Shown in pieces: positions 19,557 through 41,848 of a stretch of 64,000 nucleotides of DNA. Numbering within the stretch: the stretch's first letter is position 1; the number at the start of each line of letters is the position of its first letter. The stretch is taken from positions 46,272 through 110,271 of the forward strand of contig NZ_JAXAFO010000007.1 in NCBI RefSeq assembly GCF_033898585.1, in the 5' to 3' direction. Made by a program: the position numbers and the translations under genes. This DNA comes from Gilvimarinus gilvus. Lineage in GTDB: Bacteria; Pseudomonadota; Gammaproteobacteria; Pseudomonadales; Cellvibrionaceae. The notes beneath the pieces were generated by a model. It made no database searches, was not told the DNA's origin, and saw nothing but the letters and a program-made list of their open reading frames with translations.

Positions 19557-22181
19557 TTAGCTATTGTTGGGCTCGGCCAAAGGCAAGCTGATAAAGAATT
19601 CACTGCCTTTGCCAAGTTCAGACTCAAAACTGATGCTGCCTTGCATTTTTTCTGTCAGCGATTTTGCAATGTATAATCCAAGGCCGGTGCCGCTCTTTTC
19701 CCGCGTGTCGGTGGAATCAGCTTGAGAGAATTTTTGGAAAATTTGTTTTCTAAAATACTCTGGCATACCCCGGCCTGAGTCCCGAACCGCAATCACGGCA
19801 TGTTTACCTTCTACGCCCACAGATACGATAACGCTCGCACCCTTATTCGAATATTTAATTGCGTTAGACAAAATATTTACAATGACCTGTGTCAAGCGAT
19901 GTGCGTCGGCCCGAATACAGGTGGCATCTGTCACGTGCTCTTGCCAACTTAACTCTAGGGTCACACCGAAACCATCCGCAAAGCCTTCAACTTGCTGAAC
20001 GACCTGTTTCACTATCGATACCAAGGGAACATCGCTGATTGCAATTTTTAGTTGATCAAACTCCAGCTTTTCAACATCCAATATATCATTCACTAAGGCG
20101 TTCAGGCGCTCGGTATTATTGCGGGCAATGGTAATCATGCTTTTTGCCTTAGCACTGATTTCACCCGTGACACCAGCCTCTACTAATTTCAAGGAGCCCA
20201 CAATAGACGTTAACGGTGTACGCAATTCGTGACTGACGGTACTGATAAATTCACTTTTTAGTTTTTCAGTTTTTTTCCGCTCGGTAATATCATGCAACAT
20301 CACTACATAGTAGGAGCCTTGACTCAATTCTACCGAGCTAATACCGACCTCTACCGCCACTCTTTCGCCATTTTGGGTAATTAATGTGGTATCAAAAACC
20401 GTATTGTTGTGTTCATCGAAGAATCGGCTAATAGTGACTTTTTCTCTGGCAAATGCCTCTAGCCATTCATCAATATGAGAGCCACTGATCGTCGCATCGG
20501 TTGTCGAGAACAGTGTTACAGCAGATTGATTGTGGCGATGTATTACACCGTTTGCGTCGACCGTTAAGATGACATCGGTTGCGCTGTTCAAAATAGACGA
20601 AAGTTCGGCGGTCCTTTCATCCACCAGTTCGCCAATACGTTCAGAACGAACACTCAGCGAAAGTAAAAAACCTCCCAGCAACGCACAAAAAAGAAAACCA
20701 CCCGCCAGCACCGTCCACGTTAGTGTACTTTTGTGCTTGGTAATAAACGTATCGGTAGGCTCTAACGTTATTTTCAACGCCGCACCTGCGAAGGGGTAGG
20801 TCTGCTCAAATCGCAACAATGGCGCCAATTGAGACAGCTTTGCGCTATCTAAAGTCGCGAGATTTTCTTGTTGGTTGCCAACATAATCTACCGCGACAGT
20901 AAATCCCGGGCTTGTACCGTAATCACTTATCAGCTTATTGATCAGTTCTTCCATGACAACGACGGCGGTGGCGAAGCCCTGAGTAGCGCTGAGTTGTTGA
21001 CGACTGACACCTTTTTTATATACAGGGTAAAAAATAAGTAACGCTTTACGTTGCACGGTATCTTGTACCAGCTGTATCGGTGAGGTCATCACCGCCTCGC
21101 CTGTATTTGCACTACGTACCAACGCTTCGCGACGATTTGCTATGGAACCGACATTGAAACTTTGCGCCATTTCATTGCCGACTTTCGGCTCTATATATTT
21201 TACGAAAATATAATCACTATGCTGTCCGGCACCTACCAACACGCCCTCTTCGGAACGCTCGCGAATCATCGCGGGCAAGCCTCGCGCTGCCAGGGCTCGC
21301 TCCTCTTTTGCACGTTCAGGGTGTGCAATGTAAGCATTCCACGATAGTGCATAGAACGCCGGATTGGTTTCCAACACATCCTGCGTAAAAACTGCAAAGT
21401 CCTGTTCGGTGACATCTTGTGAAGCTTGTAGCAAGCCATCAATACTTCTCAGGACTCCCAGTTGCCCCGCCAGAGCCGAATTGAAGTTTGCTGCGAACGG
21501 GACACTCAATTGATTAAAGGCCTTTTCTAGCCGATCAAGTTCAGCGGTATTAATTCTCACAAAAACAAGCGTCATTAAGCTCGTCGCTATGACAATAGGC
21601 AAACCAACGTGAAGAGCGCGTTTTCGCCATACATCCGCCGGTTTGCCAAACGCTACATACATCAAGGGTAACGCCAACATGACACCAATGCTGTCGCCGA
21701 TCCACCAGGTCCACCAGGTAACACCAAGGCTGCCGAGTCCCACAACCCCTGCTGCGTACAGAGCGGCGGTACAAAAGCTAGCACTGAGCACGCAAGCGAT
21801 AGGCCCTGTTGCCAAAAGCAGGGTCGCTATTTCGCCCTCGCGGGTAAACGCTTGTCGCTCTTTTAATATGACCCGGCTCAGCGCGTGAGCCACTGAAACC
21901 GCGAGTGTAGTGCCCAACGCGATACCAGACGCTAATAAGCCACCTTCTGTGGTGAGTGTTTGGTTACTCTGAAAGCTAACCGTCAGATTGAGCGCCAGCG
22001 ACCCCAAAAAGACTGCAGGCAATAGCCGTACGCCTACAAGCAGTACGGCGCCAATGGCAATCCCAATAGGTGGAAAAATAGCCGTGGCGAAACCAGGAGG
22101 AATGGCTAGCATGAGCGCCAATAGGCCCACCACCCAGTAAGCAACCACTAACGATAGGGATTGAATAAAAAACTTAAACAA
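19557..22181 (-). CDS. Sensor histidine kinase: MASE1 - CHASE - PAS - HisKA - HATPase_c (no receiver domain)
   Basis: N-terminal MASE1 polytopic domain. Periplasmic CHASE-like segment. H-box SHELRTPL. G1/G2 boxes (…RDSGRGMP…, …GTGLGL…). Confidence 0.8.
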   Translation of the reverse strand: MFKFFIQSLSLVVAYWVVGLLALMLAIPPGFATAIFPPIGIAIGAVLLVGVRLLPAVFLGSLALNLTVSFQSNQTLTTEGGLLASGIALGTTLAVSVAHALSRVILKERQAFTREGEIATLLLATGPIACVLSASFCTAALYAAGVVGLGSLGVTWWTWWIGDSIGVMLALPLMYVAFGKPADVWRKRALHVGLPIVIATSLMTLVFVRINTAELDRLEKAFNQLSVPFAANFNSALAGQLGVLRSIDGLLQASQDVTEQDFAVFTQDVLETNPAFYALSWNAYIAHPERAKEERALAARGLPAMIRERSEEGVLVGAGQHSDYIFVKYIEPKVGNEMAQSFNVGSIANRREALVRSANTGEAVMTSPIQLVQDTVQRKALLIFYPVYKKGVSRQQLSATQGFATAVVVMEELINKLISDYGTSPGFTVAVDYVGNQQENLATLDSAKLSQLAPLLRFEQTYPFAGAALKITLEPTDTFITKHKSTLTWTVLAGGFLFCALLGGFLLSLSVRSERIGELVDERTAELSSILNSATDVILTVDANGVIHRHNQSAVTLFSTTDATISGSHIDEWLEAFAREKVTISRFFDEHNNTVFDTTLITQNGERVAVEVGISSVELSQGSYYVVMLHDITERKKTEKLKSEFISTVSHELRTPLTSIVGSLKLVEAGVTGEISAKAKSMITIARNNTERLNALVNDILDVEKLEFDQLKIAISDVPLVSIVKQVVQQVEGFADGFGVTLELSWQEHVTDATCIRADAHRLTQVIVNILSNAIKYSNKGASVIVSVGVEGKHAVIAVRDSGRGMPEYFRKQIFQKFSQADSTDTREKSGTGLGLYIAKSLTEKMQGSISFESELGKGSEFFISLPLAEPNNS

Positions 22182-22463: not shown

Positions 22464-25058
22464 TTGGCAGTAGACAACCAATACCCTGCATATATGAATC
22501 ACCACTCATCCATTCGAGCGACTGCCAAACGCTGGGCCATTATTAGTGTCCTGATAGTGATCGTCACCATGCTACTCGTTGAGCTAAGCCTTGAACGCTA
22601 TATCGCTCAGGTGGAAGGTCAACAGCAGCAATTGATCGCTACCCAAGAGCTTAGCCGACTCAGTGCCGAACTCAGTGGTGTCCTCAACAATAATCTTTCG
22701 TTACTCAGCGGCTTAGCCGCGCATATTGCGATATACCCAGATATCAATCAGCGTGATTTTGAACGCTATGCCAGTACGATCTTTCGCCAGGAGCCTCTAC
22801 TGGTTAATGTTGCGGCTGCGCCCGATCTCGTTGTCGAACTGATCTACCCTCTGGATAACAATAATCGACGCGCCGTCGGTCTCAATTATCGAACCAATAT
22901 CGAACAGCTTCCCGCTGTGGCCAGCTTAACAAAACGCGGCGATATGATTTTGGCGGGACCGGTACAAATGGTGCAGGGTGGCGAAGCGGTTATTGGCCGC
23001 GCCGCAGTCATCACCGCAGACGATCAATTTTGGGGCATTGTTTCAGCGCCTATCTATACGCAAAAGCTTTATAAGGCAGCCGGTATACTCGACAGCAATC
23101 TCCCTGTTGAGATTGGCATACGAGGCTTCGACGGTAAAGGCCGTGACGGCGCCGTCTTTTTTGGCGACCCTTTACTGTTCGACGACCCTCTGACCCAACG
23201 CACAGAATTAACGGTTGCCAATGGCACTTGGCAACTCGCGGCGAGAACCAACTCGAACGTAACCGGGGGTCAGGGTACTACCTACTGGGCGCTGCGCCTG
23301 GCGATTTTGCTCATAGGTGCTACCTTAAGCGCTCTGGTTTTATATCGCTTTCGGCAAACGACACAGGAACAGGATTTTCAGATTGCTCTAAATAAAAATC
23401 AGACATTATTAGAAGAGGTGGGTAAGTTGGCGTTAGTCGGCGGCTGGCAGCTTACCCCTAGGCGAGACTCGTTAGTGTTAAGTCTTTGGAGCGAGCAAGC
23501 CGGGAACATCCTGTGTATGGATACCCCCAACCCCAGCTTAGCGGAGATACTGCGTAGATTTGACCCGAAGCAGGCTAATGACCTAGCCGGACATTTTAAA
23601 AAAGCCTCTCGTGGAAAACCCTTTGATGTAGAGCTACAATTCACGGCGCCAGATAGCGATCAACACTGGGTTAGATTCAAAGGAAAACCACTGGACGATA
23701 CTTCTCCGCCCTACACTGTTCTCGGCTCTGTACAAGATATAACTCAGCGTAAAATTATTACCAATAAAATTCAGCATCAGGCTATTTACGACCAACTCAC
23801 AGGTTTGCCCAATCGCTTGCTTCTTTCCAATCGTCTTAACAAAGCAATTCATCTGAGTCAAAGAAACGGCGAGAAACTCGCCATTTTGTTTATTGATCTA
23901 GACAATTTCAAGCCGGTGAACGATAACTTAGGCCACGCAATCGGTGATCAACTTCTCAGGGAGGTAGCTGCCAGAATCAAAAGCTGTGTCCGGACAACTG
24001 ATACCGTTGCCCGTTATAGCGGAGACGAGTTTATTGTCATATTGATTGATTTGAGCGACGGTAAAATACCGGTGAACATTTCTCAGAGTATTATATCTAG
24101 TATCAACAAGCCATTTTCTATCGATCAGAATACCATATTTTGTGGCGCTAGTATCGGAATATCGCTTTACCCGGATGACGGTACAAATGCCGAGTCGCTG
24201 GTATCAAACGCTGACAAAGCCATGTACGAGGTGAAGAGATCGGGTCGCAACGGCTGGCAGTATTTTACCAAGATCATGCAAATAGAATCGGAAAAAAAGC
24301 ATAATCTTACGACCCAATTAATTCACGCTATACAGAACCGAGAACTGAATGTTCATTATCAACCCATAATCGATTTAGCGTCGCACACCATTTGCAAGTG
24401 TGAAGCCTTAGTTCGATGGAGCAATTCGTCGACCAACATCACAACAGAAGCGTTTATTTCTCTGGCAGAGGAAACCGGTCGCATCAATGAGATTGACCGA
24501 TATGTATTACAGACCGCTAGTGACTATATTACGCAGTTAAACAGGCAGACCGGTAAAGACATAGGCCTTTCGGTTAACGTGTCGCCAAGGGTATTCAGTA
24601 GTAAAGACGATTCGTTAGAGTTATGGATAGCAATTATTGAAAAGGCAGCTCAAAATTTACACATTACTGTGGAAATCACTGAGCGCTTACTGATTGATGA
24701 ATCTGACCATATACTGTCAACCCTTAATAAGCTTAAGTCGTTGGGTGTAAGTTTAGCCATCGATGATTTTGGTACTGGCTATTCATCGCTCAGTTATCTA
24801 ACTCGCTTTCCTATCGACATTCTAAAAGTTGATAAATCTTTTGTCAGCCAACTGGGAGTGCAGAAAACACCTGAATCTCTAACTAAAGCCGTCCTCAGCC
24901 TTGCACACAGTTTGGGCTTGCAAGTAGTCGCGGAAGGCGTGGAAACCGATCGTCAGTTGGCTATTTTGATGAAATGGAACTGTGACTTTGGCCAGGGCTA
25001 TTTCTTTGGTAAGCCTATCCCCGGTGAAGAATTTTTATTGCTCCTCGAAGACAAGTAG
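22464..25058 (+). CDS. CHASE-type periplasmic sensor - PAS - GGDEF - EAL c-di-GMP turnover protein
   Basis: GGDEF (RYSGDEF). EAL (ECEALVRW, DDFGTGYSSLSYL, KVDKSFV). Confidence 0.85.
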   Translation: MAVDNQYPAYMNHHSSIRATAKRWAIISVLIVIVTMLLVELSLERYIAQVEGQQQQLIATQELSRLSAELSGVLNNNLSLLSGLAAHIAIYPDINQRDFERYASTIFRQEPLLVNVAAAPDLVVELIYPLDNNNRRAVGLNYRTNIEQLPAVASLTKRGDMILAGPVQMVQGGEAVIGRAAVITADDQFWGIVSAPIYTQKLYKAAGILDSNLPVEIGIRGFDGKGRDGAVFFGDPLLFDDPLTQRTELTVANGTWQLAARTNSNVTGGQGTTYWALRLAILLIGATLSALVLYRFRQTTQEQDFQIALNKNQTLLEEVGKLALVGGWQLTPRRDSLVLSLWSEQAGNILCMDTPNPSLAEILRRFDPKQANDLAGHFKKASRGKPFDVELQFTAPDSDQHWVRFKGKPLDDTSPPYTVLGSVQDITQRKIITNKIQHQAIYDQLTGLPNRLLLSNRLNKAIHLSQRNGEKLAILFIDLDNFKPVNDNLGHAIGDQLLREVAARIKSCVRTTDTVARYSGDEFIVILIDLSDGKIPVNISQSIISSINKPFSIDQNTIFCGASIGISLYPDDGTNAESLVSNADKAMYEVKRSGRNGWQYFTKIMQIESEKKHNLTTQLIHAIQNRELNVHYQPIIDLASHTICKCEALVRWSNSSTNITTEAFISLAEETGRINEIDRYVLQTASDYITQLNRQTGKDIGLSVNVSPRVFSSKDDSLELWIAIIEKAAQNLHITVEITERLLIDESDHILSTLNKLKSLGVSLAIDDFGTGYSSLSYLTRFPIDILKVDKSFVSQLGVQKTPESLTKAVLSLAHSLGLQVVAEGVETDRQLAILMKWNCDFGQGYFFGKPIPGEEFLLLLEDK

Positions 25059-25094: not shown

Positions 25095-25607
25095 TTATCC
25101 GCAACCAAGTTTTTTTGTTCCAACTATTGCGGAAAAAATAATACCAGCCAATGCGCCGAACAAATGAGACTCAAAAGAGACACCTTCCCGAGTTGGTAGT
25201 ACTCCGTAAATCATCCCACCATATAGAAATACCACTAACATCGCGATAGCGAAACTCTTTAAACTTCGCTCAAACCAAGCAGCGACAATGAGAAAACTCC
25301 ACAACCCAAAAATCCAGCCACTGGCTCCTATGTGAACAGCGTTTCGTCCGAAAGCCCAAACCAGGGTACCGCCAACAACAATAATAAAGACACTGGCAGT
25401 AAAAAACTGACGAATTGAGCGCAGTAAAAAAATGCCGGCCAACACACTAAGGCCAATTATATTGTTAAGCAAATGACTGTAGCTTGCGTGGATAAACGGC
25501 GCCGTCAATACACCAAACCAGTGTTGTTTGTCGCGGGGTATGATTCCATATTGAATCAATTCCCCCCCCATACCTAGATTAATAATATGTACGGCGAGTA
25601 AAAGCAA
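25095..25607 (-). CDS. Rhomboid-family intramembrane serine protease. N-terminus uncertain.
   Basis: TM2 H…N motif (YSHLLNN), TM4 GASGW (GxSG), TM6 SHLFGALAG (His). TTG start from the ORF track. The in-frame hydrophobic stretch continues upstream, where no canonical start codon is available. Confidence 0.65.
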   Translation of the reverse strand: MLLLAVHIINLGMGGELIQYGIIPRDKQHWFGVLTAPFIHASYSHLLNNIIGLSVLAGIFLLRSIRQFFTASVFIIVVGGTLVWAFGRNAVHIGASGWIFGLWSFLIVAAWFERSLKSFAIAMLVVFLYGGMIYGVLPTREGVSFESHLFGALAGIIFSAIVGTKKLGCG

Positions 25608-25665
25608 AACCAGGCCTGCAATAATACGTAGGCGCAGGTATAGAGATTTTTCAACGGTAGTAATA

Positions 25666-28600
25666 CTAGCTCGTTCCTTTATTTGGGGTACTCGCCACTT
25701 CCGCCTCCAGTGACCTCAATTGGTTTGAAATGTCAGACATTTTTTCATGGGTACGCAAATCAATTTCAAGCTTCTTGTCCATACTCCTCACCAGAGGAAA
25801 TATACTATGCTCTATTGTCTCAGCTAGTACGGTCAGTACTTTGTCGATACCAGGCACAGGTTCATTGACAACTTTAATGGAGGGTTTTGACTTTTTCACG
25901 ACCTCTGACAGTTTATCTATCATTGCGGTTAGCGCTTCACTTGCTGCGGTATCACTGGATTCAACTTTTTTCGTATTGATCACAGCATTTGACAGGGTCT
26001 GTACCCCACTCACCAAATCAGCCAATTGGACGACTATCTTGCCGCCCGTATTTGCGTCATCGCCACCCATGGCTTTATTACGCTGGAAGTCTGTTTTTAT
26101 TTGCTGCCAACGCGATTGCTGCTCTGGGCTCATATTTCCGCGAATTTCAGCCAACTTCAGTAGGTTATCTTCTGCGCCTGTGGTTAATAACTGTGCCTCA
26201 CCCTGGTAGTGATCCTCAATCATTTGCATTAATTCGCGTTCGTTCATGACGGCAGATACCTTCTCCGTCATTTTGTTCATGTTCCGATAGCTACCTTGCA
26301 GCTTAAAGGGCGGCTCTGTTCGATATTTGTCGTTCTGCACAGCAGAGGCAATATACTGCTGGTTAATTTTGAGAATAACGTCTTGAATAACGAACATCTT
26401 TTGCAGTACTTGTTTGATTTCGTTAATTTCCGCCCCGCTATAGGAGTGGCTCAAGTCAGTCGTAGCAATGTTCACGCCTTTTGCCATATCGATGAGTTTA
26501 TAAACATCATTCATTTCTCGAACGGCTAGCGGTGCCAATACCGGATTGGACGTCAGCGCATTCTCAACGTAACTCAACGCAAACTGCTCGTCCATTCCAC
26601 CCAGTATATCGCCCAGATTGTATATATCCGCCCGGTTAGCAAGCATATCCGGAATTTTGAATGCCTCCCCTGATTCCGTGTAAGGGTTACCCGCCATAAC
26701 GACACAGAATTTTCTGCCACGCATATCATAGGTTTTTGTTCTTCCCTTCCAAACACCTTCTATACGCCGGGTACCATCACACAAGGATATAAATTTCTGC
26801 AGAAATTCCGGGTGTGTATGTTGAATATCATCTAAATACAGCATGACATTGTTGCCCATTTCCAGGGCCAGATTTAGCTTATACAACTCCTGTCTGGCGG
26901 TTGCGTTGGGAGCCTGGTCCGGGTCCAAGGACATTACGTCGTGCCCCAAAGAGGGACAGTTGATTTTCATGAATATCAACCCCAGACGGTTTGCCACATA
27001 TTCCATCAAAGTGGTTTTACCGTAGCCCGGAGGGGAAATCATCATCAACAGGCCCATAAGATCAGTACGCTTGTTTTCCCCCACCGTTCCCATTTGTTTT
27101 GCTAAATTGTCGCCAATTAGTGGCAAATAAGATTCGTTGATTAACCGGTTGCGCACGAACGAACTCAGCGGTCTTGGCTTATATTCCTCTAACCGCAATG
27201 CTTCGCGGTTGCGGCCAATTACTTCCTGTCGCAGGTTTAAATACTTCTGATAGGTAGGTATGACTTCGAATTTGTGTTGCTCCATACGCTGAAGGTAGGC
27301 GTCCAACGCAAAGCTTGTTTGTCTGTTTTCGATACGCGGGTGATCGCCGAGTAATCCGTTAAACGTCAGCTCCAGATCAGCCTCCGTAAAACGTCGCTCC
27401 AACCTCTCATCGGCGTTAATAAGCGCTACTGCTTCCGGTATATAACGGCGCAAATGCTCCAAGTCCTTTTCCACGATGAGCGCTTGCAACCATGCCACGG
27501 ATAGATTCCAGCGCTCCGCTGGCCAACCCATCATTTTTTCCAGCGCCATCTGGTAGCGGCGCCAGGTATTATCGTCCATAGACCGCTTGAGCTCTTCGGC
27601 TAGCTGTGTTGCGTACTTACTGCCAATAAATTCAACACGTTCGCGGCTAAGCTCTGCGACTAGATAGTCCGCAGCCCGGCGAATATCAATACTCGATACC
27701 GGTATTGGGTGACGCTCGATGAAAACACAAAGTGCTTCGCGCACTTCAGTCGCTAAAAGCTCGAGCGCCTCTGTACTGGCAAATACCGTTTGCATGTGCG
27801 ACGCAGACTGAGCGCGTTCTGGCCAGGTGTTAAAAGACAATAATTCGCGCTCGGATTGTTTCGGTTTACGTTTTACCTGGCTGTTTATATTTGCCCAGAA
27901 TATTTGGGCTAAACCGCGACTCAATGGATCAAAACGCAGGAGGTCTGCGCGCTCCAGTGCGGGCAGTATTTCTTTCAGCAAGACGACCGCATCGTGATCA
28001 TGAATACCTCTTTCATACCCCTCTTTGTACCTGGGAGCGGCAAAGTCCTTCACAATTGTCGCCAGCACGTCCTCGTCAAGAAGCCCTTTGTTTAACTTGT
28101 CCAGCGAGAGGCCATGTTGCTGCTTATGAGCCGCATCAATAATGAGCGACGCCAAAAACTCTCCGCGATAAACGTCCGGCGTTTCAGACTCCAGAGATAG
28201 ATCCCAGAAGTCTTCTGAATCCTGTAGACCGGGATCTTCCACCGGCTCAAAATAATTTGTTCCTGTTAAATGTAAGTTCAGTTTTCCTTCGCGCGGTATT
28301 ATCGTAAGGTCAAGCTCCTGGGTGTTAACTGAAAACTTGTGGCGGGGGCCCAGCTTAATAACATTGCCACCATCTTCAAAAATGTCACTTTTATCGCGCA
28401 ACGACCGCAGCGCTTGCTCTTTAATTGCTTTATAGCGCGACTCAATATCATCGGCTTTTACCGAGCTGTCGAGTTCGCGCAACTGTTCTACCAGCTCTTT
28501 TGACTTTAGTACGAGCGCGTCTGACGCGAAATAAGTATTTAACTTGTCTGAATCTGTGAATTTTAACGAACGTTTTTCGACACTCAGCAAAATACGCTCT

Positions 28601-30975
28601 GCAGCATCACCGACCGATTGCGCCTTGCGCTGTCTGGCGTCAAGCAACTTTTGCTTGTGGCTTTCAAAGGACTCATAGACTTCTTCACGCTTGTCCATTA
28701 TATCGGTCAGAAACTGGTCAAAATCACTAAATTGACTTTCAAATTCCTCCAACTGAACAAGCAGGCGCGATAACTGTTCGTCGCACTTTTCTGGGGTTGT
28801 GGAAAGGCCCAATGCATTGGTTATACTTTGAGAGAACAGTTTAAATTGAGCCGAAAATTGAGATTTCGCCTCCTCTGACCCTAGATTCTTTCGTTTGTGT
28901 GTTGCATTGGCCTTGCTCTGATTAAGCTTCGCATAAACTGTAGAAATGGCGTCGATGATGCGAGTTCTAACAGTAGCATCATCCACCTTTAGTGTGCCCA
29001 TCAACTCAGACAGCAAATCAAGACTAAAAGCTGACTGCTCTATAGACTCTATAAGCGGCTGCAGGCTCGCATTGGTATTCGCTTTTTCAACTTCGCTATT
29101 GAGGTCTTCAATTTTCTGCAAAAAAGGGTCTAGGGAGTTCTCGTGTGATAGAAATTCAACGGTTTTTTTAGATACCGTTGCTTCAACCTCCCGTAGCTGT
29201 TCATCGAGCTCTTCAATTCTGACAACATCGATATAGCGATAATCTTTAATGGTGGTCAGGTGACCGCGTTGCTGGCGTATTTTTGCCAGAGCATCTACAT
29301 ACTCTTGTGCTGCAACCCAATTTTCAGATTGCACCGATTGAACCAGTATTTGCTGATTCCGCTCGGCCTCAGACATGGTTTTATCTGACTGCAGACGTAT
29401 ACTTTGAACCTTTTCAAATTCATCAATAACCAGCTCTGATGTCGCTGCAATATCCTTTACAATGTCAACGATCGCTTGGGTTTGTTCGGTACTAATCCAG
29501 TAGTGATCGTCAAATATTTTCTGGGCTGCTTTGCTAAGCTCTTCGTATAGGCGAAGCGATACAGACTGATCATCGATAATACGACTTATACTGAACAGGT
29601 CCGAAACACCTCGAACTAACTCCGCATTACCAATTTTACCGAGAAAGGTTTGGCTACTGGGTACCTTGCTCGCAAATTCTGCACTTTGATAGGGTGTTTG
29701 CCATACCTGCATGGGGTGTACGCGCGTTGGCTCACTTTCTGCCGAAAAAATAACCAACTGCCCATTCTCGGCGAGTGCATAACCGTGGCCGTATATCGGA
29801 TTCTGAAGCTTTTTTTCAATTAAATTGTAAGCGAAAAGCCCTACGACTCCATCAATCGGATCGTAGAATATGTAGAGTACATCCTCACCGTTTGGCGATC
29901 GGATGGAGCGCTTAAACTTTAAACTAACCGAGACTTCGTCGAAATTTTTGAACTCTCCGGTTTGCAAATAGTATCCGCCGGGAAAGACTAGCCCGTGATC
30001 TTCTGGTAGCTGGACGCATGACTGGCCAATCGCATCAACCCTAATAACTGTCTCAGTCAACGAATTGAATATAAGATAACGAAACTCGTCTTCACGGTAG
30101 GGTTTCACACGCACTAGTATAAGGTCGCCTACCGACGCATAGGCTATTTCTGCATCATCGAGAGATTGGGTTCGATCTTCCACAGGCTCGCGATAGACGC
30201 CCAGCCCGTCTTCCGTATTGTTCTCCGTTTTTATTGTGAGGTCACCGTTTGTGGTCTCTACAAAAACGGTATCGAGAATATTGATATGAGCGTGGCGACC
30301 ATGCACAATATCATCACGCGTGGTGTTTACCCACTCAAAGTCATACCGCGAAGGTAGTTTTATGTCTCGTTCGCCGCGGTTATCAATATACTGAACCTCT
30401 GTGCCATCGGCCGACACCGACCAGCGGAAAACACGTATATCATCCGGGCGCTCACCGATTTGAAATCCGGCTAACAGCTTTCCATCTTTAATAGTCAGTT
30501 CGGTCAATCGGGTTTGCTTGTAGTAGCGATAGAGCTCCTCGAAGTCGTTGACAAAGCCAGACTGAGACAAAAAAGTACCCGCAAAGGGAGCCGGCTTCAT
30601 CTCATAACTTTCATTGGTTTCTTCAAGTTTAAATAATGCGAAAACGTCTTCAACTTTGGTTTCTTTTTTTAACCCAATAAAAACGTTGTAACCAAATAGG
30701 AGGTACTCACCAACCTGCACAATATCGCGGGCAATGCAGTTGTTTTCAGTGCGCACCCGAACGCGCGCCTTAACTTCCATATCCGCGCTACCAAACTCCT
30801 CAAGTCGCGCAGCGTTGAGATTCGAGGCCTGTTCGAAAAGAGCTTTGCTTTGAGCTTCTAGCCGCTTGCGTATGATTTCATAGGCACCACCTTCGGCTAC
30901 TGCGCTATCGACAACATCATTGTTTTCCACCGCCACATCCGGTTGTTCCATATCACCACCTTTTACTCTGTACAC
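25666..30975 (-). CDS. 1769-aa multidomain protein: beta-rich N-terminal domain, about 800 aa of helical/coiled-coil region, then a MoxR/AAA_5-like AAA+ ATPase domain near the C-terminus
   Basis: Walker A MISPPGYGKTTL. Walker B VMLYLDD. MoxR-like VVMAGNPYTESGEAFKIPDMLANRADIYNL. Single uninterrupted ORF 42 nt downstream of the flotillin gene. Confidence 0.7.
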   Translation of the reverse strand: MYRVKGGDMEQPDVAVENNDVVDSAVAEGGAYEIIRKRLEAQSKALFEQASNLNAARLEEFGSADMEVKARVRVRTENNCIARDIVQVGEYLLFGYNVFIGLKKETKVEDVFALFKLEETNESYEMKPAPFAGTFLSQSGFVNDFEELYRYYKQTRLTELTIKDGKLLAGFQIGERPDDIRVFRWSVSADGTEVQYIDNRGERDIKLPSRYDFEWVNTTRDDIVHGRHAHINILDTVFVETTNGDLTIKTENNTEDGLGVYREPVEDRTQSLDDAEIAYASVGDLILVRVKPYREDEFRYLIFNSLTETVIRVDAIGQSCVQLPEDHGLVFPGGYYLQTGEFKNFDEVSVSLKFKRSIRSPNGEDVLYIFYDPIDGVVGLFAYNLIEKKLQNPIYGHGYALAENGQLVIFSAESEPTRVHPMQVWQTPYQSAEFASKVPSSQTFLGKIGNAELVRGVSDLFSISRIIDDQSVSLRLYEELSKAAQKIFDDHYWISTEQTQAIVDIVKDIAATSELVIDEFEKVQSIRLQSDKTMSEAERNQQILVQSVQSENWVAAQEYVDALAKIRQQRGHLTTIKDYRYIDVVRIEELDEQLREVEATVSKKTVEFLSHENSLDPFLQKIEDLNSEVEKANTNASLQPLIESIEQSAFSLDLLSELMGTLKVDDATVRTRIIDAISTVYAKLNQSKANATHKRKNLGSEEAKSQFSAQFKLFSQSITNALGLSTTPEKCDEQLSRLLVQLEEFESQFSDFDQFLTDIMDKREEVYESFESHKQKLLDARQRKAQSVGDAAERILLSVEKRSLKFTDSDKLNTYFASDALVLKSKELVEQLRELDSSVKADDIESRYKAIKEQALRSLRDKSDIFEDGGNVIKLGPRHKFSVNTQELDLTIIPREGKLNLHLTGTNYFEPVEDPGLQDSEDFWDLSLESETPDVYRGEFLASLIIDAAHKQQHGLSLDKLNKGLLDEDVLATIVKDFAAPRYKEGYERGIHDHDAVVLLKEILPALERADLLRFDPLSRGLAQIFWANINSQVKRKPKQSERELLSFNTWPERAQSASHMQTVFASTEALELLATEVREALCVFIERHPIPVSSIDIRRAADYLVAELSRERVEFIGSKYATQLAEELKRSMDDNTWRRYQMALEKMMGWPAERWNLSVAWLQALIVEKDLEHLRRYIPEAVALINADERLERRFTEADLELTFNGLLGDHPRIENRQTSFALDAYLQRMEQHKFEVIPTYQKYLNLRQEVIGRNREALRLEEYKPRPLSSFVRNRLINESYLPLIGDNLAKQMGTVGENKRTDLMGLLMMISPPGYGKTTLMEYVANRLGLIFMKINCPSLGHDVMSLDPDQAPNATARQELYKLNLALEMGNNVMLYLDDIQHTHPEFLQKFISLCDGTRRIEGVWKGRTKTYDMRGRKFCVVMAGNPYTESGEAFKIPDMLANRADIYNLGDILGGMDEQFALSYVENALTSNPVLAPLAVREMNDVYKLIDMAKGVNIATTDLSHSYSGAEINEIKQVLQKMFVIQDVILKINQQYIASAVQNDKYRTEPPFKLQGSYRNMNKMTEKVSAVMNERELMQMIEDHYQGEAQLLTTGAEDNLLKLAEIRGNMSPEQQSRWQQIKTDFQRNKAMGGDDANTGGKIVVQLADLVSGVQTLSNAVINTKKVESSDTAASEALTAMIDKLSEVVKKSKPSIKVVNEPVPGIDKVLTVLAETIEHSIFPLVRSMDKKLEIDLRTHEKMSDISNQLRSLEAEVASTPNKGTS

Positions 30976-31018
30976 CTAAAGAAGCAGGGAGCAGCTGCCC
31001 CCTGTTACCCGCAAATTT

Positions 31019-33766: not shown

Positions 33767-34450
33767 TTATTTTTTCTTTAAACGCTCAAGAATGTCATCG
33801 GCACTTTTGCCACTGGGCGCAATACCTGCTTCTTCAAGTTTGGACTTTAAAGACGCCTCCGTAGTTTCTTCGGATATTTCTTTAGCCGCTTCCATTTGTG
33901 CCGCTTTCAGTGCTTGCTTTTCTTTAATTCGTTCCAATGAGTCCATTGCGGTTCTCATTTTTGACTGCGAGCCACTATGTCTTTCTGCCACGGCGGCCTG
34001 CGCTCTTTGCACATTCTCCGTGGCCTTTACCGTATCCACTTGCTGTTTGAAGCGTTTCAGGTTTTGCTCGGCCTGCTTTATCGCAATGCGCAGTGACGTC
34101 AGGCTTTGCTCAAAGCCTTTTGCTGCGTCAGCCTCATTTGCCAACTGATTCTCAAGGTCAGCTAGCTTTTCCGCCACCTCGCGGGCGAGCGCCTCTTCGC
34201 CCTTGTCTAGCGCTTTTATCGCATAACTTTCGTGCTCTTTGATCTGACCTTCAATCTGAGCGCACCGCTCTTCAGCGACCTTTTTGCGCGCCAGTATATC
34301 GGCGAGACTGTCTTTTGATTGCTTTAGCTCCTCGGCAGATTCGCGAATTTCCTGATCCAGAATCCGCAAAGCCTGGCTATCTACAATGGCTTCACCGGCT
34401 TCGTTTACGCCGCCTTTAAGGGCTGTCATCATTTTTGACCAAATGTTCAT
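33767..34450 (-). CDS. PspA/IM30/Vipp1 (ESCRT-III-like) family protein, YjfJ-like
   Basis: 227 aa, all-helical. MNIWSKMMTALKGGVNEAGEAIVDSQALRILDQEIRE… matches the PspA/YjfJ N-terminal pattern. Confidence 0.85.
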   Translation of the reverse strand: MNIWSKMMTALKGGVNEAGEAIVDSQALRILDQEIRESAEELKQSKDSLADILARKKVAEERCAQIEGQIKEHESYAIKALDKGEEALAREVAEKLADLENQLANEADAAKGFEQSLTSLRIAIKQAEQNLKRFKQQVDTVKATENVQRAQAAVAERHSGSQSKMRTAMDSLERIKEKQALKAAQMEAAKEISEETTEASLKSKLEEAGIAPSGKSADDILERLKKK

Positions 34451-34464
34451 TACTATGCTCCTGA

Positions 34465-35097
34465 TTAACTCGCCGCGACGGATAGTTTTAAATGTTCGCC
34501 ATAGGCCTCGGTCGCCTGAATCACATTGCTCGCCAACACCTCGATTTCAAAGACCACATTGTGCAACAATGACGTGGAACTAAGGGCTCCGAACATTTGA
34601 TAGTAATCTCCGTTGGCGCCCATCTGGTCAAGGCTAATGGTAGAAAGCGGAAAGTATTTATGAGTCCTAAGAATTAAATCGTTGAATCGAGCAACATCAA
34701 CCACTTCGTCTACCGACCAAAGTACAGACTCAACAATAATCTGATCGCCCGCCACGGTTAGGAAAATCGGCAAGTCACCATACTCTTTCATGGTGATGTG
34801 TATCGCCTTGTCTACCCCCTCAATCAGCTCGACACTCGCCATATCACTGGTAAGCAACTCTGTATTGGTAAGGGCTTCATATAGGCTGGTAGTATCCCAA
34901 CTATTCTCTCGTCTCTCAGTCATGCTTTTTTCTCCTTTTAAAGCAAACGACTCGCCACGCTCTCTTAGCAACTTCTCTAGCTCAGCAAGTTGTCCCGCAT
35001 TTTCTGGAAGTATCCAGACTTCTTTCTTAACCAGGCCCTGTTCACGGAGCCTTTTTCGATATTCGCGCTGATAGTGTGCAGAAGATTTCGCTTTCAT
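34465..35097 (-). CDS. YjfI-like (DUF2170) protein with an extra basic N-terminal segment of about 50 aa
   Basis: C-terminal 150 aa match the DUF2170 pattern (DLPIFLTVAGDQIIVESVLW…FNDLILRTHKYFPLSTISL…GDYYQMFGALS). N-terminus AHYQREYRKRLREQGLVKKEVWILPE. Followed 14 nt downstream by the PspA gene. Confidence 0.55.
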   Translation of the reverse strand: MKAKSSAHYQREYRKRLREQGLVKKEVWILPENAGQLAELEKLLRERGESFALKGEKSMTERRENSWDTTSLYEALTNTELLTSDMASVELIEGVDKAIHITMKEYGDLPIFLTVAGDQIIVESVLWSVDEVVDVARFNDLILRTHKYFPLSTISLDQMGANGDYYQMFGALSSTSLLHNVVFEIEVLASNVIQATEAYGEHLKLSVAAS

Positions 35098-35110
35098 AGG
35101 ATCATCTTAG

Positions 35111-35160
35111 TTTGTTACATGTGATACTGTCAAGAAATTACATGTAATATCAACAGTATC
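35111..35160. promoter_or_regulatory. Concentric palindromic operator-like site upstream of the operon
   Basis: TTACATGT-GATACTGT-caagaaa-TTACATGTAA-tatca-ACAGTATC. The outer 8-bp inverted repeat and the inner perfect 10-bp palindrome share a centre 40-45 bp upstream of the start codon at 35097. Confidence 0.4.
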
Positions 35161-35633
35161 GTTTTAGTTACGGCACTGGGGCCAATCAAAAACGATAGTT
35201 CGGGTATCAAATGCACACTAGCAGACGCGTGCTGGACGGGTTGTGTTTTAGCTTGGGCAGAAATAATTCAATATCCTTATGAGTGGGCGCTTATCCTTAA
35301 AACAGGGCGCTGACGGAAACTTGGCCCCCTTATTTTATGCTCTGATACGGGACATGTACCAGCTAACGCAGACTTCGGAGAAGTATATCCAATTATCTAT
35401 GTGTTAGGTATGTCTTCCATATTATCGGTTTACTGTTGCAATTTCTGGTCACTCTGGAGCGCTTTTTTGGCAATTGCACATCAGGATGCAGGGGCGGCAC
35501 ACCTTAGTTGCAACGAATGATGCGAACCCGCAAAAACGAAGAGAAAAAGGCGTTGGCGCACTGAGCACCTAACAGACAAAAGGTGCAAGCCTAATAATAT
35601 CCCAGTTGATTCGCTTCGACACATTAGCTTCCT

Positions 35634-35668
35634 ATAAAAAAGGCGCCAATACAAAGTAAAGGCGCCTC
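35634..35668 (-). terminator. Rho-independent terminator of gyrB
   Basis: Minus strand reads AGGCGCC-(13-nt loop)-GGCGCCT followed by TTTTTTATAG, about 25 nt after the gyrB stop. Confidence 0.6.
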
Positions 35669-35693
35669 AAATTACTTAATAGTGAATACTTAC

Positions 35694-39255
<3,562 letters not shown>

Positions 39256-39265
39256 GACGTTATAC

Positions 39266-40369
39266 TTAAAGCCTCATAGGCATTACGACATAAAGAGAGT
39301 CACCCTCTTCAGGTTCTTCTAATAACGCGCTACTATTGGCATCTGACAGTGTAATCTTGACCGTATCACTGTCCAAAACATTCGCCACATCGGTCAAATA
39401 GCTCACATTAAAACCGACTTCCAGCGAATCTCCATCATAATCAACGGTCAGTTGCTCTTCCGCCTCTTCCTGCTCTGGGTTATTTGCGACTATAGTCAAC
39501 TGACCACTGTCTAATAGCAGCCGAACTCCGCGATACTTTTCATTAGAAAGAATCGCGGTACGTGAAAACGCCTGTTTCAGTTCGCTGCGCGAACCGTACA
39601 TAGTCTTATCGCCGCCTCTGGGCAGAACACGCTCGTAGTCGGGAAACTTGCCATCGACCAACTTAGAGGTAAACGTGTACTCCTCTGAAGCAACTCGTAT
39701 ATGGTTTGCACTGAGAATAATATCAACCAAATCTTCGTTATCGTTCATCAGGCGCGCTAACTCTAACACCCCTTTTCGAGGCAAAATTGCCTGTACCAAC
39801 TCGGCCGTATTGATACCCAATTCGCGGGTGCACATAGCCATACGATGACCATCGGTTGCCACGACTCGCAACTGGTCCTGCTTTACCTCCCAAAGCATGC
39901 CGTTGAGGTAATAGCGAACATCTTGTTGGGCCATTGCAAATGCCGTGCGATCAATCAAGCGCTTAATCTCACCTTGTTGAGCACTGAATTGCAGGTCACT
40001 TGGGCCATCTTCCACATTGGGGAAGTCACTGGCTGGTAAAGTAGAAAGAGTAAAACGGCTTCTGCCACTTTTTAGTAAAATACGACCTTCTTCTTCGATT
40101 ACTTCAATCATTGAGTCATCAGGCAAAGAGCGCACGATATCGACAAACTTTCGTGCGGGAACAGTGATCTCACCATCAACGCCTGGCGCCTCTAATTCAA
40201 CGCGACCGACTATCTCTACTTCAAGATCGGTACCAGTAAGTGCGAGCTTATCGCCCTCTAGCACCAGCAACACATTGGAAAGTACGGGTAAGGTCTGGCG
40301 ACGCTCAACTACACCGGCCACCAACTGCAGGGGTTTAATCAATGCCTCTCGCGATACGACGAATTTCAT
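39266..40369 (-). CDS. dnaN: DNA polymerase III beta sliding clamp
   Basis: 367 aa. MKFVVSREALIKPLQLVAGVVERRQTLPVLSNVLL is canonical. Confidence 0.95.
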   Translation of the reverse strand: MKFVVSREALIKPLQLVAGVVERRQTLPVLSNVLLVLEGDKLALTGTDLEVEIVGRVELEAPGVDGEITVPARKFVDIVRSLPDDSMIEVIEEEGRILLKSGRSRFTLSTLPASDFPNVEDGPSDLQFSAQQGEIKRLIDRTAFAMAQQDVRYYLNGMLWEVKQDQLRVVATDGHRMAMCTRELGINTAELVQAILPRKGVLELARLMNDNEDLVDIILSANHIRVASEEYTFTSKLVDGKFPDYERVLPRGGDKTMYGSRSELKQAFSRTAILSNEKYRGVRLLLDSGQLTIVANNPEQEEAEEQLTVDYDGDSLEVGFNVSYLTDVANVLDSDTVKITLSDANSSALLEEPEEGDSLYVVMPMRL

Positions 40370-40390
40370 GTGATGGTCTCTTAGTCCTAA

Positions 40391-41848
40391 TTAAGTGGTC
40401 AAGGAGCGCAGCAGGTTTTTCAAATCTTCCCTGATATCCGCATCCTCTTCTTCTAACTGTTTAATTTTACGGCAAGCGTGTAAAACTGTCGTATGATCAC
40501 GCCCCCCGAACGCTTCGCCAATTTCCGGTAAACTGTGGTTGGTCAGCTCCTTAGCCAAGGCCATAGCCACCTGGCGAGGGCGGGCAACGGAACGACTGCG
40601 GCGCTTAGACAGCATATCGGCGATTTTAATCTTGTAGTACTCCCCGACAACTCGCTGAATATTATCAACACTCACCTGCTTATCCTGCAGCGCTAACAAG
40701 TCTTTTAGGGCTTCTCGCACCAGTTCAACATCGATTGACCGTCCAGTGAAGTGAGCGCTCGCTATCACCCTTTTTAGCGCACCTTCAAGCTCTCGAACGT
40801 TGGATCGGATTCTCTGGGCGATAAAAAAAGCCGCATCATCGGGTAAATCCACCTCCACTTGCTGCGCCTTTTTCTTTAAGATAGCCACGCGCATTTCCAA
40901 CTCAGGCGGCTCTACCGCCACCGTGAGCCCCCAACCAAAGCGAGACTTTAACCTCTCTTCAAGACCGTTAATCTCTTTCGGGTATCGATCGCACGTCAGA
41001 ATAATTTGCTGCCCACCCTCCAGTAACGAATTGAAGGTGTGGAAAAATTCCTCTTGCGAGCGCTCCTTGCCTGCGAAAAACTGAATATCATCAATCAGCA
41101 ACGCATCCACAGACCGATAATAACGTTTAAAGTCATTAATAGCGTTAAGCTGCAGCGCCTTAACCATATCCGCCACAAACCGCTCCGAGTGCAGGTAAAT
41201 AACCTTAGCGTTAGGGTTCTTTTGTAGCAACGCATTGCCCACGGCCTGCATTAAGTGAGTCTTACCTAAGCCGACGCCACCGTAAATAAACAGGGGGTTA
41301 TAGGCACCGCCAGGATTCTCCGCGACCTGGCGCGCCGCAGCCAACCCAAGTTGGTTAGACTTACCTTCAACAAAACTGGCAAACGTAAAAGCGCGGTTCA
41401 CGTTACTCTGATGCTTCAATCCGCCTTCGACATCAGTCTTCGACGCTACTGTTGCGGCGGATGGTTGCCGCGGCTCTTCGGGGGATGGCAGCGGACTGTC
41501 GGAGCGCCCGATAGGCTCGGAGGCATTATTGTTGAAATGGCCAGGGGCTGGACGTGGCGCAGTGGGAGCTGGACGTCGCATTACATTAGTTGTCGTACCG
41601 CGATTGCCCACACCAACTTCGATGCTCAAAGCAGGGTCAGCCTGGTACTGGTTTGCCAGCTCTCCAATGCGATCGAGAAACTTTTCTCTTACCCAGTCAC
41701 AAACGAACCGATTTGGGGCCAAAATGCGCAGACAGTCGCCCTCGGCACCACCTTCAATTTTTAAAGGTCGAATCCACGTATTAAACTGTTGCGATGGCAA
41801 CTCGTCCTGAAGACTGGAAACGCAATATTCCCAAACCGATTCCGGCAA
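40391..41848 (-). CDS. dnaA: Chromosomal replication initiator DnaA
   Basis: AAA+ motifs ([10 protein letters not shown]) and the C-terminal DNA-binding signature. Divergent from rpmH. Confidence 0.95.

Follow-up and report, generated by a model that had tools for sequence, protein, structure and literature searches.

Bacterial flotillins and the PspA/Vipp1 proteins of the ESCRT-III superfamily are intensively studied, and we know of no energy-consuming partner of flotillins or PspA that could be likened to Vps4 or, for the HflK/C cage, to FtsH. The closest described system to the locus reported here is the 'biofilm-associated cluster' of Pseudomonas aeruginosa PA14, bacA-bacF (PA14_16140-16200), which is co-transcribed and has been proposed to be sigma-54 dependent; BacB-F are raised 6-13-fold when bacA is mutated, and bacE (PA14_16190) and bacF received a name only (PMC10948618). 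BacD (PA14_16180) is the SPFH protein PaFlo3, which is paired with the short NfeD protein PA14_16160 (PMC13086221). Recurrent mutations in PA3728, listed as an 'ATPase', occur in isolates from cystic fibrosis. Ravi et al. (2024, mSystems) described the protein architecture and the operon in silico, proposed a function in ATP-dependent remodelling of membranes and found shorter operons (flotillin, YqiJ and ATPase only) to be more widespread, with an occasional HKD hydrolase (PMC11237479). Here, we describe a large AAA+ ATPase of this kind and its operon, encoded within a 64,000-nucleotide (nt) stretch of the Gilvimarinus gilvus genome (contig NZ_JAXAFO010000007.1, positions 46,272 to 110,271; hereafter, the window).

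We regard the window ATPase as a soluble member of the BacE/PA3728 family that most likely powers the remodelling of flotillin/PspA membrane-scaffold assemblies, a reading to which we assign a probability of about one half. The BacE family is widespread and has already been catalogued in silico; the window contributes a new orthologue, which is neither a DNA-repair enzyme nor part of a MoxR-vWA chaperone pair. Below, C, D and E denote the genes for the BacC-like (YqiJ/NfeD), BacD-like (YqiK/flotillin) and BacE-type ATPase proteins. Our reading is based on the C-D-E order found across phyla, the homology of D and C to YqiK and YqiJ, the invariant ATPase site, the absence of a transmembrane segment from the ATPase while the C and D proteins have them, gene gaps of 14-67 nt and the recurring association of SPFH proteins with AAA+ machines. 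It is further based on the co-transcription of the syntenic PA14 genes (PMC10948618) and on the same contextual inference having been made by Ravi et al. (PMC11237479).

The open reading frame (ORF) at 25666-30975 runs without interruption, as the original prediction held, and lies on the minus strand; the ORF list, the translation and an identical NCBI protein bear it out. The length of 1769 aa given there, with the strand left unsaid, is possible from the first potential start, a GTG at 30975 (1,769 codons), but the likely start is an ATG at 30951, eight codons further in, which is preceded by a Shine-Dalgarno-like AAAGGTGGTGAT. The ATG-started product of 1,761 aa, whose numbering is used throughout, displays 100 % identity over 100 % coverage to a 1,761-aa NCBI protein from Gilvimarinus sp. 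SDUM040013 named 'DNA repair ATPase'. No transmembrane segment was detected in the ATPase (maximum KD19 = 1.25).

Four genes lie upstream of the ATPase gene on the same strand. For the nearest two, single-sequence searches of Pfam (Band_7, Flot, NfeD), NCBIfam and the PDB returned no significant match; the flotillin-like and NfeD/YqiJ-like proteins were recognised solely by comparing profiles built from 19 orthologues with Escherichia coli YqiK and YqiJ using hhalign. The 654-aa BacD-like protein matches YqiK over 410 columns (probability 99.9 %, E = 4e-32) and comprises one N-terminal transmembrane helix (aa 1-35), an SPFH-like domain and a Glu/Ala/Lys-rich coiled coil, while the 229-aa BacC-like protein matches YqiJ (probability 93.7 %, E = 1.9e-7), has several transmembrane segments and gives a weak Pfam YqiJ_N match (E = 0.053). 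This subfamily of flotillin-like and NfeD/YqiJ-like proteins is probably under-annotated in genomes.

Relatives of the ATPase are numerous, with more than 6,200 clusters (90 % identity) at E < 1e-5 and 422 clusters (50 % identity) matching its C-terminal third at E < 1e-30. A relative is encoded in the genomes of at least 591 species, which include Gamma-, Beta- and Zetaproteobacteria, Myxococcota, Actinomycetota, a Clostridia metagenome-assembled genome and Thermoanaerobaculia; Ravi et al. list a Bacteroidota example too (PMC11237479). Full-length relatives are 1,550-2,036 aa long and match at ~1080-1650, and the architecture is therefore conserved. Across the family, the motifs SPPGYGKT, LDDIQH, GNPYT, IPDMLANR and LQGSYRN recur at around residue 1300 of 1,550-2,040-aa proteins, and the window protein carries everything that characterises a BacE/DUF3686-AAA+ protein, namely DUF3686, DUF7902, the AAA+ motifs and a position 3' of C-D. 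In Pseudomonas species, the ATPases are 56-58 % identical and the gene order is the same. The original prediction was thus right to place an AAA+ ATPase in a membrane context, but the architecture that it considered unusual is neither unique nor new, belonging to a conserved family whose operon had already been described.

We then compared gene order in 80 related loci, in which all ORFs were searched with the window's proteins and iterated hidden Markov models. A YqiJ-like C gene is present in 72 and a YqiK-like D gene in 75 of them, always in the order C-D-E and on the strand of the ATPase gene. Where C or D is missing, the contig nearly always breaks off just upstream of the ATPase gene; in one locus (L075), D lies ~6 kb upstream and there is no C. 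The DUF2170 and PspA genes, by comparison, occur in only 39/80 loci, all proteobacterial, and are divergently oriented in three. These frequencies (72-75/80 vs 39/80) indicate that the constant partners of the ATPase are the flotillin/NfeD pair, not PspA. A rhomboid gene lies 3' of the ATPase gene in 13 loci. Separately, a gene for a ~229-aa HKD-motif (phospholipase-D-like) protein, absent from the window, was observed downstream of the ATPase or rhomboid gene in 12 loci (L001, L007-L009, L011, L012, L014, L021, L029, L033, L041 and L057). Besides rhomboid and HKD, no other conserved neighbour family was found in the 80 loci, and neither an upstream family nor a DNA-repair gene recurs.

The AAA+ module is the most conserved portion of the protein. 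In 81 sequences (the window protein and those of the 80 genomes), the following are invariant (100 %): the Walker A motif SPPGYGKTT with K1312; the Walker B motif LYLDD with D1374 and D1375, followed by IQH; the sensor-1 residue N1422 within MAGNP; R1440 within IPDMLANRAD; and LQGSYRNMNK, in which R1556 corresponds in position and context to a sensor-2 arginine. The DD in Walker B in place of DE, already noticed in the original prediction, is invariant and is therefore a family trait and not a sign of decay.

Taken together, the ATPase joins a BacC-like membrane protein and a BacD-like scaffold as the third and constant member of a three-gene module. In Proteobacteria, this module also takes in a CesT-like DUF2170 protein and one of the PspA/ESCRT-III family, and in the window a rhomboid protease as well. 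The AAA+ modules of the ATPase would oligomerise, presumably into a hexameric ring, and may dock on the cytoplasmic flotillin assembly via the beta-domain and the spectrin-like arm, which could serve as an adaptor or reach arm. By hydrolysing ATP on the cytoplasmic side of the inner membrane, the modules would then assemble, disassemble or otherwise remodel the flotillin cage; alternative or further targets could be PspA polymers, where these occur, and clients held by the scaffold.

Several points weigh against this reading. Our literature searches turned up no experimental study of any member of the family (ATPase activity, oligomeric state, localisation or partners). AlphaFold2 confidence is low at aa 1278-1310 (beta1/P-loop) and in the region of R1440, so that ring formation and pore features are unreadable from the model, and no canonical aromatic pore loop is evident in the ATPase. 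Deletion of paFlo3 (bacD) in PA14 led to only ~20 % less biofilm (PMC13086221), and phenotypes may therefore be subtle. Gene neighbourhood is evidence of functional linkage and not of mechanism, and the equation with PA3728 rests on synteny in other Pseudomonas species and not on the PA3728 sequence itself. A bolder version of our reading is offered as a tentative suggestion: BacE proteins could be the long-sought engine of flotillin/PspA remodelling, an AAA+ ring that sits on the cytoplasmic face of a YqiK-type cage via a non-canonical beta-domain and a spectrin-like arm and opens, closes or recycles the cage and the PspA coat, maybe handing clients to the rhomboid protease, in which case DUF3686 and aa 880-1249 would represent new folds.

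The domain layout of the protein bears on an alternative role. Pfam returned a full-length DUF3686 (PF12458; aa 38-484, 673.5 bits vs a cut-off of 25, profile positions 2-448 of 448), DUF7902 (PF25472; 92.8 bits vs a cut-off of 26) and weak, overlapping AAA, AAA_22 and AAA_5 matches at aa 1300-1425, and the same Pfam set was found in all listed homologues. No NCBIfam model matches the protein, and nothing was found in the literature on DUF3686, PF12458, DUF7902 or PF25472. Two AlphaFold2 models, built from alignments of 55 sequences with 46-82 % identity to the query, cover aa 1-900 and aa 840-1761 with predicted local distance difference test (pLDDT) scores of 83.9 and 76.6, respectively. They predict a helix at aa 23-53 and a beta-rich domain of ~29 strands at aa 59-418, helices of 15-58 residues over aa 436-856 followed by a small beta element, a globular, largely helical domain modelled with very high confidence at aa 880-1249, an AAA+ module at ~aa 1260-1600 and a patchy helical tail. 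The tail (aa 1601-1761) is weakly conserved, with ~50 % gaps among relatives and low or patchy pLDDT, and many relatives' matches end near aa 1650-1660. A PDB chain search with the whole protein and a 32-sequence profile returned only P-loop-length matches (Rix7, RuvB, p97), so the protein has no solved relative, and no structural relative was found for the 370-aa helical domain at aa 880-1249. Of the features called from the sequence by the original prediction, the beta-rich N-terminal domain is supported by both DUF3686 and the modelled strands, whereas the '~800 aa of coiled coil' was overstated: this part consists of spectrin-like helical bundles, totalling ~420 aa, and the globular helical domain. 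Such a layout might also suit a structural membrane skeleton or tether, in which the rod and beta-domain link flotillin platforms to other structures and the AAA+ module is a nucleotide-controlled oligomerisation switch and not a motor. The length of the spectrin-like bundles, the large extra helical domain, the unusual DD variant of Walker B and the lack of a recognisable pore-loop motif are all compatible with this role; however, the ATPase site, with its sensor 1 and its arginine-finger and sensor-2 candidates, is invariant across phyla and better conserved than any other part of the protein, which argues for hydrolysis, and we consider a purely structural function unlikely.

Slightly less likely again is a dedicated PspA (bacterial ESCRT-III) disassemblase, which would be analogous in function to Vps4, recycling PspA polymers, and for which the flotillin is only a platform. 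A gene for PspA shares the operon with the ATPase in the window and in 39/80 loci, a 2025 review notes that bacteria appear to have no Vps4-like ATPase (PMC7619361) and, for associations of PspA with AAA+ proteins, Ravi et al. suggest that membranes are remodelled in an ATP-dependent manner (PMC11237479). The flotillin/NfeD pair is nevertheless the more constant partner, as described above.

The class of the ATPase core decides how far a third alternative can be pursued. The AAA+ fold is confirmed, and AAA+ structures were the only ones matched; an ABC/SMC assignment, which the original prediction had named as an outcome that would overturn it, was examined and ruled out, with no ABC/SMC match to the protein in Pfam or NCBIfam. 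Within AAA+, the model includes lid helices and a predicted pre-sensor-1 hairpin (aa 1396-1409) and no helix-2 beta insert, with low confidence at beta1/P-loop and around R1440. Compared with reference ATPases, the module scored 9.4, 8.9, 8.8 and 8.0 with the Hsp100/Clp proteins ClpA, Hsp101, ClpB-NBD2 and Skd3, 9.1 and 8.7 with the MoxR-type NorQ and CbbQ, 8.2 with midasin (AAA_5) and 6.7-7.7 with the classic clade (p97, FtsH, spastin, Vps4). When a profile of the AAA+ segment was aligned to E. coli proteins using hhalign, values of 95.5 % (RuvB), 90 % (ClpB-NBD2, 117 columns), 89.6 % (FtsH), 89.4 % (ClpX), 86.9 % (Lon), 79.5 % (DnaA) and 38.6 % (PspF) were obtained; RavA, at 10.9 % over 22 columns, was the lowest of the eight AAA+ references. 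AAA_5 (PF07728) matches the window protein at 23.5 bits vs a cut-off of 22 (profile positions 2-125 of 139) and reaches up to 36 bits in relatives, with one of nine diverse members just under the cut-off (21.4 bits), and overlaps PF00004 matches of equal or better score; over the nine segments, PF00004 and AAA_5 are on a par and RuvB_N returns E = 1e-3 to 1e-4. The combination that marks the classic AAA clade, PF00004 plus a second region of homology with R-x-x-R arginines, was not found. The profile scores and the model thus place the core among the AAA+ proteins that have a pre-sensor-1 hairpin, at about the same distance from Hsp100/Clp as from NorQ/CbbQ/midasin, and, judged by its sequence, the ATPase is a member of neither the MoxR family nor the ABC/SMC class. 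The 'MoxR/AAA_5-like' label of the original prediction therefore holds for AAA_5 but not for MoxR, and its preference for a MoxR/dynein-type over a Clp/FtsH-clade core is not upheld, since the Hsp100/Clp matches are as good as the MoxR-type ones.

A MoxR-type chaperone that matures a client or inserts its cofactors, like RavA-ViaA, CbbQO or NorQD, is improbable on the same data: the MoxR model AAA_3 (PF07726) matched only two of the nine members, at 12.8 and 14.2 bits vs a cut-off of 27, the RavA alignment is the poorest of the set and the protein is about six times the size of a MoxR protein. The absence of a vWA gene, remarked on in the original prediction, extends to all nine neighbouring proteins scanned and to the 80 loci, in which no vWA partner is conserved. 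Finally, a DNA-repair ATPase is very hard to credit, as the inherited names 'DNA repair ATPase' and 'ATPase involved in DNA repair', for which no supporting paper was found, and the chance position of the operon after dnaA-dnaN-recF-gyrB are set against conserved partners that are membrane proteins, the lack of any recurrent DNA-repair gene across the 80 loci and the lack of a detectable nuclease, helicase or DNA-binding domain in the protein.

The coordinates of the ATPase, its domains and the associated features are given in Table 1. The DUF2170 protein at the head of the operon passes the NCBIfam equivalog model NF050185 'biofilm formation regulator BacA' (307.6 bits vs a cut-off of 300). 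The rhomboid protein has intact HxxxxHxxxN, GASG and catalytic His motifs (catalytic Ser/His). Upstream of the TTG at 25607 called by the ORF finder, in-frame codons specify a hydrophobic segment to which the N-termini of homologues can be aligned; this stretch (25608-25664) contains no ATG, GTG or TTG, and its first candidate start is an ATT one nt past the ATPase stop codon. By this alignment, the rhomboid gene probably starts at ATT 25664, ~19 codons upstream of the TTG, a position that suggests a non-canonical start or translational coupling. A PADLOC search returned no match for the ATPase or the C, D and A proteins, and only coiled-coil noise for PspA. Directly upstream of the operon, gyrB, recF, dnaN and dnaA (35694-41848, minus strand) place it next to the replication-origin gene cluster. 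On its other side lie a gene for a CHASE-GGDEF-EAL protein (22464-25058, plus strand), convergent with the rhomboid gene, and one for a MASE1-CHASE-PAS histidine kinase (19557-22181, minus strand).

Two putative regulatory elements were detected. Between D and E lies a GC-rich stem-loop, and a stem-loop at this junction is found in most related loci, often with a T-tract after it, although the sequence itself is not conserved. Over 75 loci, the best 45-nt minimum free energy (MFE) within 90 nt of the D stop codon averages -20.7 kcal/mol vs -15.5 kcal/mol for shuffled sequences, with z < -2 in 44 % of loci; the control C-D junction gave -13.0 vs -12.9 kcal/mol and z < -2 in 8 %. The D-E stem-loop may act as a partial terminator or intra-operon attenuator that sets the scaffold-to-motor expression ratio. 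The best sigma-70-like promoter match lies only 6 nt ahead of the ATG of the BacA-like gene, so that the transcript would be nearly leaderless; on either side of it are the palindromes ATTACATGTAAT and TCACATGTAAC, possible operator sites. A search for a sigma-54 -24/-12 element in the intergenic region 35098-35693 gave no match.

Table 1. Features of the ATPase operon, in window coordinates (residue numbers refer to the 1,761-aa product)
Feature	Position	Strand	Basis
Rhomboid-family intramembrane protease gene, directly 3' of the ATPase gene	25095..25664	-	PF01694, 67.7 bits
BacE-type AAA+ ATPase gene, 1,761 aa	25666..30951 (stop codon included)	-	ORF list and translation
ATPase: variable helical C-terminal tail, heptad-like at aa 1640-1750	25669..26151 (aa 1601-1761)	-	Conservation, pLDDT, heptad signal
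ATPase: AAA+ module	26152..27174 (aa 1260-1600)	-	
ATPase: globular domain, mainly helical with small beta elements, no recognised family	27205..28314 (aa 880-1249)	-	
ATPase: helical rod of spectrin-like bundles, holding DUF7902 (aa 606-689)	28384..29499 (aa 485-856)	-	
ATPase: beta-rich N-terminal domain (DUF3686), preceded by helix aa 23-53	29500..30840 (aa 38-484)	-	
GC-rich stem-loop, then CTTCTTT, between the flotillin-like and ATPase genes	30985..31004	-	Terminator scan, MFE -16.5 kcal/mol
BacD-like flotillin/SPFH scaffold, 654 aa	31019..32983	-	hhalign vs YqiK; position upstream of the ATPase gene
BacC-like YqiJ/short-NfeD membrane protein, 229 aa	33018..33707	-	hhalign vs YqiJ
PspA/IM30-family protein (BacB-like, ESCRT-III superfamily)	33767..34450	-	PF04012, 156.8 bits
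DUF2170/CesT-like protein (BacA-like)	34465..35097	-	PF09938, 169.7 bits
Best sigma-70-like promoter match, TTGACA-18-TAAGAT	35104..35133	-	Just upstream of the BacA-like gene

Bacterial flotillin/PspA systems lack a known motor, and the BacE family, to which the window adds one orthologue, is a strong candidate for that role. Being large, conserved and encoded right after the flotillin/NfeD pair, the ATPase is an obvious candidate for such a motor, yet databases label it a DNA-repair protein. The hypothesis is sharpened here by the flotillin/NfeD pair as the constant partner, the intact ATPase site, the spectrin-like nature of the 'coiled coil' and the stem-loop between the scaffold and motor genes.

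Among known systems, the window operon is most directly comparable with that of BacE (PA14_16190/PA3728), sharing the order DUF2170/BacA, PspA/BacB, short NfeD/BacC, SPFH/BacD, large ATPase and a further small gene; it differs in that a sigma-54 promoter is proposed in P. aeruginosa, whereas the window has no -24/-12 element. The 'beta-propeller + coiled-coil + AAA-ATPase' partner that Ravi et al. assigned to CesT/Tir-PspA-YqiJ/YuaF-Band-7/flotillin operons has the same domain order and neighbours. More distantly, the D2 modules of Hsp100/Clp proteins (ClpA, ClpB-NBD2, Hsp101, Skd3) are 13-17 % identical to the window ATPase, which lacks the Clp N-domain, middle domain and ClpP-binding loop, has DD in place of DE and possesses a single AAA+ module. 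Unlike NorQ, CbbQ and midasin, it has no vWA partner, AAA_3 match or modelled helix-2 beta insert and is far larger. With Vps4/CdvC it shares the encoding of an AAA+ ATPase beside an ESCRT-III-superfamily protein (PspA), but it gives no MIT match, and PspA is adjacent in only 39/80 loci. SPFH cages with AAA+ machines are an established theme (HflK/C-FtsH, prohibitin-m-AAA and SLP2-YME1L-PARL, the SPY complex), and the locus follows it in coupling an SPFH scaffold genetically to an AAA+ ATPase, by analogy and not homology. BacE differs from these AAA+ proteases in having no protease domain or membrane anchor and in a core that is not of the FtsH type. In the 13/80 loci with a rhomboid gene, the window among them, the same three protein types come together as in the SPY complex, and this occasional rhomboid gene makes SLP2-PARL-YME1L an especially close parallel.

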